From Octopus vulgaris (Eukaryota), in contig OX597842.1 in assembly GCA_951406725.2 (NCBI GenBank), positions 13,206,001 to 13,270,000 of the forward strand: DNA of 64,000 nt. Direction: 5' to 3'. A program made the position numbers and the translations under genes. Within the stretch, counting starts at the first letter, position 1, and every line of letters starts with the position of its first letter. The notes beneath the pieces are model-generated. The model was not told the DNA's origin. It did no database searches and worked only from the letters and a program-made list of their open reading frames with translations. Positions 33,101 through 57,100 of this stretch are shown piece by piece.

Positions 33101-36100
33101 AGAAGAAGAAGAAGAAGAAGAAGAAGAAGAAGAAGAAGAAGAAGAAGAAGGATTCTCAGTTTAGAAAAATTAGCAAATTGCCTTTTAGTAATAGGAGAAG
33201 ATGAAGAAATATAGAAGTATTCCAAAACAGTAAAATTATTGGAAGAAATTTAAATATGAAGAATGGCGGTGCTCCAGCATGGCCGCAGTCAAATGACTGA
33301 AACAAGTAAAAAGAGAAAAAAGAGTACTTCTAAATAGAAAAATGAAATAAGACTTCAATTTGCTGATCAGCGTTAATCTAATGGTAAACTCAGTACATGA
33401 CATCTAGACTGGATTACAGACACATGTTGATAATCTCGCATATTTGAATCTAGACACTATATATATATATATATAATGCTAAATCTCAGAGCGAGTTATA
33501 AACAGTAGCAGCAACACATCGTGACGTATATTTGCCATTTGAATATGGCTAACCCCTAACGGTGGATGCTACTGTAGTTTGTAGCCCCAGGAGGACACCT
33601 CCTCCAGCTGGCTATAGGCACACTTTCTGTGCCCTATCAGTATCTGCAAAGGGAAGCCATCCCTCCCGTCTTCAACTCATGATACACACGGACTCGAGTT
33701 TCAGGGTATTGACCCGTCATCGGCGTGTGACAATCATAGTTGTGACAATCATAGACAACTATGATTGTCACACGCCGATGACGGGTCAATACCCTGAAAC
33801 TCGAGTCCGTGTGTATCATGAGTTGAAGACGGGAGGGATGGCTTCCCTTTGCAGATACTGATAGGGTACAGAAAGTGTGTCTATAGCCAGCTGGAGGAGG
33901 TGTCCTCCTGGGGCTACAAACTACAGTAGCATCCACCCTTAGGGGTTAGCCATATTCAAATGGCAAATATACGTCACGATATATATATATATATATATAT
34001 ATATATATATATATATATATATATATATATAGGAGTAAACACATAAATGTGAAACAAGGTGGAAAAAAGAGTACTCAAATACCAGTGGTAGAGTAATATG
34101 CTTTATTTAAATCAGCAGAAAATTCAACAAAACCTGTTACTCTGAGTTTCACGTTCCCGTTCGTCGGACAGTTTTTGCTAGCAAAAACTGTCCGACGAAC
34201 GGGAACGTGAAACTCAGAGTAACAGGTTTTGTTGAATTTTCTGCTGATTTAAATAAAGTATATATATATATATAGGATAAAAATTTTCGAAAACAATTTT
34301 ATCAATGGCCAGCATATTAAAAAAATACATTTAAAGGATAAATTTTATAAGCAACTTATAAACAAGAGCAAAAGAAAAAAATTCCAATGCCAAATATAGC
34401 GAAATAGATTTAATCGTCAATAACCATATAATTTATCACTGCAAGCACGCGTCTCAAAAACAAGCCGATAGAAATTTCTAAACAATTTCGTTATTATCGG
34501 ATCGGTCCCAATTTCTGTGTTAATTCATTTAGAGTCTTCTCATCATCAGCGATAAATACGATAAGAAAATAAATGAGATACTTACTTGTACCCATGGAAG
34601 GATTAATTCAGAAACTGGGACCGTTCCAATAATAATGAAATTTTTTAGAAATTTCTATCGGCTTGCTTTCGAAACGCGTGCTTATGGGGATAAATTATAT
34701 GGTTATTGAAAATTAAGTTTATATTTCGGCATATTTGGCATTGGAATTTTTTCTTTTGCCCTTGTTTATAAGTTGTATATATATATATATATATATATAT
34801 ATATATATATATATATATATATATACTTCACTACCTCATATGTTCTTAAAATTTAAATCTACATCTTTGTCTGTATATCTACCTTCTCTATAATGTTGCC
34901 ACTTGATTTGAAAACTTTTGTATTAATGGAAAACATCTATAATTGGCTGATGAGTACTCAGCATCTTAAATCTGTTGTAATGCTTACAACATTTAATAAA
35001 ATGATGTAGTGCGAAACAATTGTACCAAATTACCGGAGTCATTCTTGTTGCTTATTTTGATTATAAATATATATATATATACATGCGTGCATAAAATGGT
35101 TCGTCTAATATATCACACTCACATATATAAAAACAGATACTCTTATTCCCTCAGAGATGACATTCATAAGCAATCATACGTTCTTATTAGGGGAAAGTGA
35201 GAATATTGGGAGATAATAAGTGAGAGAGTGGGAAAGTAAGGATGTGAAGATATTAAATATTAAATATTTAGAAAGATATTGTCAATGAAATGCTAGCAAC
35301 AAGTCTGATCTTTACTTACAATGTACTTAAACTGGAGAGATTTTGGAAGGATCCGGCTTTGAGTTCTTTTATATCATTGTTATTCAAATATCTGTAAGAT
35401 TAAATTCATTTGAAAAGAAATATCATGGATTAGGTATCTGATAAAATGACACATATTATGACAAAATAATAAGATGAGAGACAAAGAAAGTAGGCAATGA
35501 TGAGGATGAATTTCATGATGATGGTGAGAATGGTGGCGGTATCGTTAGCACGCCGAGCGAAAATGCTTAGAGGTATTTCGTCTGCCGATACGTTCTGAGT
35601 TCAAATTCCGCCGAGTTCGACTTTGCCTTTCATCTTTTCGGGGTCCATAAATTAAGTGCCAGTTACGCACTGGGGTCGATATAATCGAGTTAATCCATTT
35701 GTCTGTCCTTGTTTGTCCTCTCTGTGTTTAGTCCCTTGTGTGTAGTAAAGAAATAGGTTTTTCGTCTGCCGTTACGTTATGAGTTCAAATTCCGCCGAGG
35801 TCGATTTGCCTTTAATCCTTTCGGGGTCTATAAATTAAGTACCAGTTGCGCATATAATCGACTTAATCCCTTTGTCTGTCCCTTCTGTGTTTAGCCCCTT
35901 GTGGGTAGTAAAGTAATAGGTATATGATCGTTGAATATGTTTCGATATACTTTCTTTCGAATCCTATTTTGGGAATATAAGTGAGATAGGTATAAGGAAA
36001 GAAGAATAAAATGGTGAAAAGAGAAAGCAGAAAACAAAAGAAGAAAGAAAGAATAAGAAGGAAGGCGAACAGGAGGAGGAGGAGGGAGAAGAAATATAAG

Positions 36101-54100: not shown

Positions 54101-57100
54101 AACCAATTCAATGATTTTGCTATGGAGTACAGGAAGTACCTGTGCAGAAGAATAATTTTCAGTGGGTGTAGCTTGTACTGCAATATTGGCCCAAGAAGAC
54201 TTTCGACAGTGTGACAGAAAAATTGACAAAACCAGGAACATCCAAGACCTCAGGTTTTATTTCGGAGATTTCCTTCTCCTAGGTAGATTACCAACCAAGA
54301 TTAAAGAGCTTCTATAAGCCCATGACGTAAGCTATCCCATCCCAGACACCAGAGCGACACTCAGACACTCTATAAAGTGATCAGATATCACTCTGGCGAT
54401 CGACGTGGAGTAGCACATTCATAAAAAAAGGAAGGTACGATATGTGATTTGAAAATGTAAATAAGTATTATATATAAATATAAAAAAGTAAAAGATATGT
54501 GATAAATATAAATGTATATATAAAAGTATACATATATATACACATATAGAGAAATAAAAAGGTATGATGTGTGAATAAACAATATTGTATAAAGAATAGA
54601 AAAAGATATGCAATTATAAGATATAAAATATACATAAAGTAAAAATATACATATATATATAAATATACATATATATATATAAATATGCATCTATATAAAA
54701 ATATACATACATATATATATGTATATATATGTATATATATATATATACATATAAAAGTTATATACACATTAACAGATATGTTGTTGGATGGCCGTTGACT
54801 GTTCAGGAGTTCATTATACATACATACACACATACATATATATACATCATACATGCATACATACATACATACATACAAACATACATTTATATATATTCAT
54901 CATACATACATACATACATACATACATACATACATATATATACATCATACATGAATACATACATACATACATACATACATACATACATACATACATACAT
55001 ACATGCAGGCATACATACATATACATACATAAATATATATACGCACACATATATATGTATGTATGTATGTATGTATGTATGTATGTATGTATGTATGTAT
55101 GTATGCATGTATGTATGTATATATATATGTTTGTTTGTATGCATGCACAAAATGCTTCACTTGATGTATCATATTCACATATATGCAACACGCACTCGTA
55201 GTCCATCACACAAGTTCACAAACAAATACGTGCTACAACTGGGCGTGGGTGAAATTATACGAAATGACAATTTGAAAGAGCGGGAAATGGAAGATGCGAC
55301 GAATATATCAAGAAGACTGGTCTAACTTACAAATCTGCTAAATTGGGAAGATTTTGAAAGGTTCCTGGTTTGATTTCGTTTATATGATTGAAAGCCATAT
55401 TCCTGTAACATAAATTTCAGTTGATTAGAAATTGTGTAGAACAAGATCAGTGATAAAATGTCACGCATTGTGGATAAAGAACTGGATGATGGAGAAACGG
55501 TAACTAGATTATAATGACGTTGAAGATCATGATGATGGACATGATGGTGGCGTTGTTAGTGGTAAATATTATATGAAGGAGGAGGAGGGGAGGGGGAAGA
55601 GGGGAGGAAAAGGAAGAATGTGGTGATGGTGTTGATGACGATGATGTTATGATGCTAATGATGGGATTAATTACCTTGGTTGTAATTATTTGTGAGGGTG
55701 TTGTCGATTATGGTTCAGGATACTGATGATGATGGTGATGGTGATGGTGTTATGATGATGAAGCAAACGATGATGAACTATACGATATTGATGATTAAAA
55801 TACAGATGGCAAAGACCCTGGGGACATTCATGATGACAACAACGAGGACGATTAGGGTTAGGGTGAGGGTTAGGTCATGGCGTCGATGGTGGTGACATAA
55901 ATAGTACAAGTATTCGATGAGCAGAAAAGAAAAAAAATAGTTGAAAGAGTAAGAAGGAGAAAAAGGAAAAGAAGTTGAAGAAGAATGAAGAGAAAAGAAG
56001 GAACAGAAGAAGAAGAAGAAGAAGAAGAAGAAGAAGAGGAGGAGGAGGAGGAGGAGGGGAAGAAGAAGAAGAAGAAGGAGAAGAAGAAGAAGAAGAAGAA
56101 GAAGAAGAAGAAGAAGAAGAAGAAGAAGAAGAAGGAGAAGAAGCATAAGAAGACGAAGAAGAAGAAGAAGAAGGAGAAGAAAAAGAAAAAGAAGGAGGAG
56201 AAGAAGAAGAAGAAGGAGAAGACGAATAAGAAGAAGAAGATGCAGAAGAAGAAGAAGAAGAAGAAGAAGAAAATGAAGAAGAAGAAGAAGAAGTGCAGAA
56301 GAAGAAGAAGAAGAAGAAGAAGAAGAAGAATGAATCACCCTCTTAGAATAGATTTTTCGTAGAAAACGATGAAAAAATAGTAATTTTAAGAAAATTTATA
56401 ATTTTTAGCAGAAATTTAAAACCTGATGAATGAAGTTTTAAATACAGAAATAGAAGCAAGAGTCAATTATAGTAATCAGTGTTAATCTAAAGATAAAAAC
56501 AGTACATGACATACATACAGAATTACAAACACATGTTAATACTGTTGCATACACGAATCTATACACAATATGTGTGTGTGTGTGTGTGTGTGTGTGTGTG
56601 TGCAAATAGACACACACTTATATAGATCTCTATATATGTAGACACATGTACACATCTCCGTGTGTGGGCTCGCATGGAGGGGGGGGGCAGAAGTATGTAG
56701 AATTGGTGTGTTCAGAGGTGCATGTGTTCATTATGAATACAATTACAGCAGTGACCTTCTTTGACAAATTGCAGCCCTTCTGTCTCTGGCCATCTTCGAC
56801 TCCCTGCAGTTCCATATTTTTTCGAATTTCCGCCTTTTTGGCGAAAAGTCGCGTTAGGATTTTAAAATCTTTAATTAGCACAGAATTTGAGTCAAATAGT
56901 TTTCATCCATACATATATATATATGAATATAAATATAAATATAAATATAAATATAAATATATATATATATATATATATATATATATATATATAAAGGAAA
57001 TGAAGAAAATGCTGACAAAATAATTCAAGTAATTTAAGTAATTTAATTAGGTGAAAGTTCTTTTTACCGGTTGCGCATTTGTTATGCTTATCAAAATATA

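Follow-up and report, generated by a model that had tools for sequence, protein, structure and literature searches.

The β-strands of leucine-rich repeats (LRRs) form the concave binding face of LRR proteins. Highly variable plant NLRs carry hypervariable residues on the LRR surface and are encoded by clustered, recombining genes; however, they are intracellular NB-ARC receptors, and their repeats are not encoded one per exon. The concave face is also variable in the variable lymphocyte receptors (VLRs). In lampreys and hagfish, these receptors consist of 24-amino-acid LRR modules placed between caps (PMC3900441, PMC12264053). In the ROCO and LRR-kinase genes of the brown alga Ectocarpus, as described by Zambounis et al., each 24-amino-acid LRR is encoded by a 72-nt exon, inactivated exons lie in introns, and intra- and intergenic recombination is found together with positive selection on concave-face residues (PMC3341825). 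The present study concerns a 64,000-nt stretch of the Octopus vulgaris genome (assembly GCA_951406725.2, contig OX597842.1, positions 13,206,001 to 13,270,000 of the forward strand; hereafter the window), whose minus strand carries a predicted adhesion G-protein-coupled receptor (GPCR) gene with an LRR arm, each LRR being one 72-nt exon (a cassette). It is likely that the predicted ligand-binding strand of these repeats is under diversifying selection, while recombination among near-identical cassettes reshuffles its residues.

By analogy, the octopus system appears to work like the ROCO LRR exons of Ectocarpus, its closest analogue, without being a ROCO member; above the Pfam cut-off, three homologs gave LRR, GPS, and 7tm_2 families only, and no Roc-COR GTPase domain. 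The algal proteins differ in being intracellular GTPases or kinases, their exons have another register, and some of the exons lie on the non-coding strand (PMC3341825). The two cassette systems presumably arose independently. In a PDB search, a sequence of the window family matches VLR structures; however, VLRs are assembled somatically from donor cassettes, whereas the octopus gene is complete in the assembly and encodes a GPCR, with spliced exons as its modules. The window gene is not a VLR. The top PDB sequence and fold matches are the extracellular LRR proteins LRRC15, LGR4/5, LRRTM2, and netrin-G ligands. With LGR4/5 and LRRC15 the octopus protein shares the typical extracellular LRR solenoid, a generic similarity at ~22-32% identity, but these are conserved vertebrate proteins, and LGRs are rhodopsin-class receptors without GAIN or GPS.

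Ritschard et al. (2019) described, as group 3, an octopus-specific expansion of adhesion GPCRs with LRRs in 5 of 22 sequences and with the axial nerve cord, suckers, skin, and gills as sites of expression, and proposed a neural adhesion role; the ratio of nonsynonymous to synonymous change (omega) exceeded 1 at the branch level, yet a site test found no selected residue (PMC6408891). The window gene resembles group 3 in its class B GPS/seven-transmembrane (7TM) organisation, its LRRs, and its tandem co-localisation, and it probably belongs to this group. As far as its account of group 3 extends, that paper describes neither one-LRR exons, nor cassette shuffling, nor strand-restricted selection (PMC6408891). 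In the literature searched, which was mainly open-access and did not include the supplements of PMC6408891, no cassette structure or strand-restricted selection was found for the octopus family, and no diversified recognition receptor family was found in cephalopods. LRR receptors of plants, algae, and lampreys are well known to show this evolutionary pattern; what is new is that a mollusc has it on a GPCR.

Cassettes and strand codons

The cassettes of the window gene fall into four types, A to D, and are located as follows (window positions).

35082..55574, minus strand: A-B-C block duplicated internally (A-B-C / A-B-C), flanks 93-97% identical, LINE-like fragment in common
55331..55402, minus strand: LRR cassette exon A1, 72 nt, AG/GT
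47422..47493, minus strand: LRR cassette exon B1, 72 nt
44590..44661, minus strand: LRR cassette C1, 72 nt, donor ATAAGT, likely skipped, skipping being frame-neutral
41109..41180, minus strand: LRR cassette exon A2, 72 nt, 5' end found spliced in a contig of run X2
38794..38865, minus strand: LRR cassette exon B2, 72 nt
35320..35391, minus strand: LRR cassette exon C2, 72 nt
32274..32345, minus strand: LRR cassette exon D1, 72 nt
29007..29078, minus strand: LRR cassette exon D2, 72 nt, 3.27-kb tandem copy of D1

The strand motif LxxLxLxxN is interrupted by the intron, and the residues predicted to be exposed thus lie at both exon ends. Five strand codons were set from this LRR consensus, three near the start of the exon (1, 3, and 4) and two near its end (22 and 23). 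The four window pairs had already been seen when these codons were chosen; the out-of-sample test consists of 77 pairs from other genes, described below.

A first-pass annotation had counted by hand the differences between duplicated cassettes, and its counts are exact: 10 for A1 and A2 (9 in six changed codons and 1 synonymous), 8 for B1 and B2 (four codons), 14 for C1 and C2 (1 synonymous), and 2 for D1 and D2, although the D pair (29007-32345) lies outside the span it had given. Over the four pairs together, there are differences at 34 of 288 exon bases and at 58 of 1391 flank bases (Fisher p 2.6e-6). Considered singly, pairs A (p 0.001) and C (p 1e-4) have a significant exon excess, whereas B (p 0.20) and D (p 0.68) do not. 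The changes had been said to cluster at exon ends. This is so for 23 of the 34 differences, which fall in the five strand codons (15 nt per exon), but the other 11 lie elsewhere and include K8S and S20K in B, T12A, F14S, and P19S in C, and an M>T change at a buried leucine position in A.

Divergence at the strand codons

A paralog 40-70 kb beyond the right end of the window has nine further A/B/C/D cassettes and its own first exon. Together with the eight window cassettes, these form a local sample of 17 close cassettes; a tenth relative, whose exon is 70 nt long, was excluded. Across the 30 within-type pairs, strand codons differ at 40% of bases and flanks at 4.1%, and N9, I11, F15, and L1 show no amino-acid change. 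When a codon model was fitted on flank trees, omega was 12.7 at strand codons and 0.66 elsewhere; the strand value was 9.7 when multi-nucleotide changes were allowed, and 4.3-6.3 without the four suspect cassettes A4, B4, C1, and C4. The null of omega = 1 at strand codons was rejected in all eight fits (p <= 6e-4), with a backbone omega of 0.23-0.66. The start of A4 (G000:C29:13318969) looks, by eye, like that of A1/A3 after a compensated -1/+1 frameshift, with four residues altered at once.

The family survey covered 1.26 Mb of one assembly, picked around known cassette clusters rather than at random, and gave 324 cassettes (290 intact of 72 nt, 7 in-frame of 69 nt, and 27 apparently dead). 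Outside the window locus, 77 non-overlapping pairs were selected by flank similarity alone (divergence <=10%). In these pairs, nonsynonymous divergence (pN) at strand codons is 0.117, which is 4.4x that of the flanks (0.027), while the backbone has a pN of 0.019 (0.7x flank) and a synonymous divergence (pS) of 0.024 (0.9x flank). Since the backbone synonymous sites match the intron rate, the flanks are a fair neutral proxy family-wide. The ratio pN(x)/pS(exon) is 3.9 (p 7e-14), and pS at the strand codons, 0.054, is lower than pN in the same codons (p 0.005). The strand excess persists in each of the four flank bins, both inside single genes and between genes, and in the 17 pairs off contig C29; the window locus goes beyond the family average with 23x flank (5 pairs). 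The impression of the first-pass annotation that introns are more alike than strand codons therefore holds, intron divergence being far lower both locally and family-wide, and dN/dS in the larger sample is above 1 at strand codons.

The position of these codons was read from an AlphaFold2 model of the Octopus sinensis protein P0031 (XP_036369864.1), predicted from the single sequence without an alignment. The mean predicted local distance difference test score (pLDDT) is 66, with ~75-94 across the LRRs, and there is one strand per repeat (residues 58-63, 82-86, 106-112, and onward). By residue numbering, the strands contain codons 23, 1, 3, and, in several repeats, 4, and codon 22 comes immediately before. 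The proposal that the variable sites lie on the concave face is thus consistent with this predicted structure, with four of the five positions in the repeated β-strand and the fifth just before it.

Dead cassettes behave differently from live ones: six pairs have 1 difference in 86 strand sites, compared with ~8.5 expected at the live rate (p 0.001). A test for micro-conversion donors was null, since local segments with both variants matching another cluster numbered 0 of 9 (0.8 expected), and those outside the locus 3 of 34 (3.4 expected), with the 290 cassettes of the 1.26 Mb as the pool. The substitution spectrum at strand codons shows no significant difference from that of the flanks (p 0.056). 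Overall, the dead cassettes, the donor test, and the spectrum favour selection over a mutator.

Recombination and the O. sinensis homolog

A single tree cannot accommodate 40 of the 105 informative site pairs in type C. Strand divergence shows no correlation with flank divergence (rho 0.004), and the histories of the upstream flank, the exon ends, and the downstream flank disagree. P0031 contains ten cassettes of the same four types, and its C-terminal part is identical to the window gene at 149 of 158 residues. Cassette A2 equals repeat 5 of P0031 (23 of 23 amino acids), and other repeats join ends that belong to separate cassettes of the local sample, such as a B4 start with a B1 end and a C3 start with a C6 end. 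O. vulgaris and O. sinensis diverged ~2.5 million years ago (PMC10700109). Judging by protein sequence, some strand variants are probably older than this split and have been reassorted. Positive selection for new specificities after duplication had been proposed in the first-pass annotation; selection is supported and new specificities may have resulted, but recombination reassorts older exon-end variants, so that the history is not simply one of duplication and new mutation.

Alternative explanations

Several points weigh against reading this pattern as selection on the binding strand. Recombination violates the single-tree model and can inflate omega, and the codon-model values lean upward; the tree-free ratios, 3.9 family-wide and 8.1 in five local pairs, are safer and defensible. 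Synonymous divergence is raised, being 2.2-2.7x flank in local exons and 2.0x flank at strand codons family-wide, and therefore part of the signal is due to older ancestry or multi-base events; more than one base differs in 22 of the 89 changed strand codons of the 77 pairs. Because older variants are reassorted, the 20-30x obtained by calibration on introns exaggerates the rate of substitution, and the defensible excess is that of the tree-free ratios, 4 to 8. The 77 pairs are non-overlapping yet not phylogenetically independent. The dead-cassette control is small (7 pairs), and its seventh pair, C1/C4, has a common broken donor, yet 5 strand bases differ. The placement on the strand comes from a single-sequence model of a homolog, by residue numbering only.

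It is unlikely that homogenisation by itself accounts for the data, with conversion rejuvenating the introns and the exon middle, and the exon ends being old and merely tolerant (omega ~1). Recombination is indeed evident, and in some pairs 0 of 220 flank bases differ despite several strand changes, which, like the doubled synonymous divergence at strand codons, would fit such a process. However, conversion would have to skip precisely five codons, there is no halo of raised divergence in the exon-adjacent flank bins, and the pattern is absent from six of the seven dead-cassette pairs. Moreover, nonsynonymous divergence exceeds synonymous divergence in the same codons, and omega = 1 was rejected in every fit.

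A targeted diversifier that rewrites exon ends, by templated micro-conversion or as a local mutator in a VLR-like manner, is less probable still. It would leave frequent multi-base codon changes, as are seen, and it could account for the 15 nt near the B4 start common to C5, for the likeness of the A4 start to a compensated frameshift of A3 (by eye), and for the divergence of C1 and C4 despite their dead donor; however, the donor test was null, the dead pairs are quiet, the spectrum is not significantly unlike that of the flanks, and the gene is complete in the assembly, with no donor pieces needed.

An assembly artefact (uncollapsed haplotypes or sequencing errors) is scarcely credible and already largely refuted for the window: an upstream paralog ends near a gap at C29:13301929, a plus-strand paralog begins after another at 13135921, and a 2-kb common stretch is 98.7% identical, near the published 1.22% heterozygosity of O. 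vulgaris (PMC10700109), but the window has no N, both ABC blocks lie inside one gene with flanks ~4% different, the A2 and B3 ends recur base for base in other runs and A2 in the O. sinensis protein, and errors would show no preference for five codons.

Diversifying selection combined with recombination is thus the preferred explanation, and the proposed scheme is the following. With one 72-nt exon per LRR and identical splice phases, the gain, loss, or skipping of a cassette leaves the reading frame intact. New strand combinations would keep arising by unequal crossover or conversion within the conserved middle of the exon and the flanks, and selection would retain them. When a ligand binds the concave face, the GAIN/GPS tethered agonist would relay the signal to the 7TM region. 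The most likely ligand, with about an even chance, is a variable non-self surface molecule; a role in a self or neuronal identity code is possible but clearly less favoured. It is doubtful that the family is a large, polymorphic anticipatory GPCR recognition system, in which dozens of genes with hundreds of cassettes would carry trans-species binding-face variants, exchanged by recombination among animals and, through in-frame exon choice or somatic recombination, among cells. The restriction of selection to the strand, the trans-species variants, and the cassette shuffling suggest an arms race, or a code for self and non-self, rather than neural adhesion. As the exact residues to swap are named, receptor function is directly testable.

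Splicing of the cassettes and the C1 donor

Sequencing runs, presumed (as a guess) to be RNA, were aligned to C1 at 85% likeness. Contigs from three of the four runs match no further than the exon limits. Reading by hand shows that the loose ends of these contigs are adjoining cassettes, attached at exact exon junctions: a C end to the B3 start, a C end to the A2 start, and the B3 end to C and then D. This shows that cassettes of the family are spliced. The C exons in the contigs are C-type paralogs or alleles, and none is C1 itself. Several of the cassette combinations are absent from the 17 local cassettes, and two junctions match P0031 in amino acids, which suggests that cassette combinations vary between animals.

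The C1 donor (window 44584-44589) reads ATAAGT instead of GTAAGT, which the first-pass annotation had overlooked, as it had the adhesion GPCR context. The same G>A loss is found in C4 (G000:C29:13332606). C1 and C4 are block duplicates (95.5% over 2.3 kb) and both end in ...RM; nevertheless, 5 of the 9 bases that make up their three strand codons at the 5' end differ (p 3e-5, assuming 5% divergence). Run X6 has, after B3 and thus in the C4 slot, a cassette with yet another start, a near-RM end (at most one base off), and splicing at the normal site. Most likely, other haplotypes have a live cassette in this slot, and starts were swapped with live alleles. Two private backbone changes in C1 are consistent with decay. 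An in-frame cryptic GT (GTTATA) 3 bases upstream of the C1 donor was considered and rejected, as it matches the consensus poorly and no contig supports it. That A-to-I editing restores ATAAGT as a donor in C1 and C4, toggling a binding repeat, is highly improbable: local folding does not set C1 and C4 apart from intact C cassettes, no antisense match >14 nt exists within ~15 kb, and RNA editing very rarely changes splice sites (PMC9699675). Two other donors with a G>A change lie at C29:14860633 and C29:15950987.

Architecture and identity of the receptor gene

With C1 omitted, 20 exons splice in silico to 797 stop-free codons. In addition to the cassettes, the gene comprises the following parts.

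58340..58534, minus strand: signal peptide and LRRNT exon, ATG at 58515, 58 amino acids 100% identical to O. sinensis P0031
28164..28333, minus strand: last LRR strand and cysteine-containing C-terminal cap exon, 170 nt, found by tblastn with homologs, in frame
19517..23991, minus strand: three exons of a ~100-amino-acid domain (23897-23991, 21507-21559, 19517-19674)
13357..15268, minus strand: presumed hormone-receptor-type domain, two exons (15154-15268, 13357-13526), PF02793 on homolog P0016
6331..10996, minus strand: four GAIN-region exons (10765-10996, 10197-10368, 7647-7799, 6331-6459), PF26588 on homologs including P0001
5139..5288, minus strand: GPS exon, corresponding to the PF01825 region of homologs
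3079..3194, minus strand: exon of the first transmembrane segment (TM1)

The signal peptide was judged by eye, and the Pfam LRRNT score on P0031 is slightly below the cut-off. In the cap exon (28164-28333), the opening codons, which complete the last strand, differ among paralogs and P0031 (LAN, LRN, LKN). For the ~100-amino-acid domain at 19517..23991 Pfam gave no match; it may be SEA-like. The HL/TSF consensus is present, and autoproteolysis and tethered-agonist signalling are putative. The remaining 7TM exons extend from about window position 48 to C29:13200931, mostly beyond the left end of the window, and their aligned parts are stop-free (the trace ends before the final exon).

With GPS and GAIN regions before TM1, a secretin-type 7TM region, and a long ectodomain, the window gene is by its predicted domain order an adhesion GPCR. 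When one GAIN exon was used as the query, 30 of 30 protein matches were from Octopus, mostly labelled ADGRG6-like, and 54 matches were found across the O. vulgaris genome. The O. vulgaris protein P0001 is 100% identical over this query exon and carries the secretin-type 7TM family PF00002. This public gene model has no LRR exon and no GPS exon, and it takes in as an exon a short-period tandem repeat at window 20049-21295 that is open in several frames; the lack of LRR exons may explain why the pattern was missed. Two cysteine-rich exons of the relatives P0005 and P0020, presumably Ly6/uPAR-like though Pfam gave no match, have no counterpart in the window gene (window 24000-28160) or in its two nearest paralogs, and are absent from P0031.

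Other features in and around the window

Assembly gaps occur at G000:C29:13117561, 13135921, and 13301929; the upstream paralog stops near one of them and an inverted paralog, whose D exon has 70 nt, starts after another. Part of the content of these two paralogs is the same, so that they may be alleles or a single gene that has been split. Elsewhere in the genome, C10:6342219-6476021 (G000) has 57 same-strand cassettes in 134 kb, possibly a single very long LRR gene.

Immediately upstream of the first coding exon, ~14 tandem copies of a ~185-bp element occupy window 60240-62830. Further copies of the element lie at 35532-35923 and around 8200-8580, and the upstream paralog has a duplicate of the array. 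Decayed LINE-like fragments at 38923-40264 and 50782-54451, which we take to contain endonuclease- and reverse-transcriptase-like open reading frames, are 96% identical and were duplicated with the A-B interval; the upstream paralog has them too. Long inverted repeats of 78-99% identity, separated by little or no spacer, lie at 33518-33980, 34096-34263, 34346-34781, 12677-12924, and 21649-21835, and another was seen by eye at ~57030-57280; they are either elements resembling miniature inverted-repeat transposable elements or read artefacts. Fragments at 16274-16675 and ~36270-36720 are presumably from Tc1/mariner-like transposases, and the one at 16274-16675 is incorporated in the O. sinensis model P0002.

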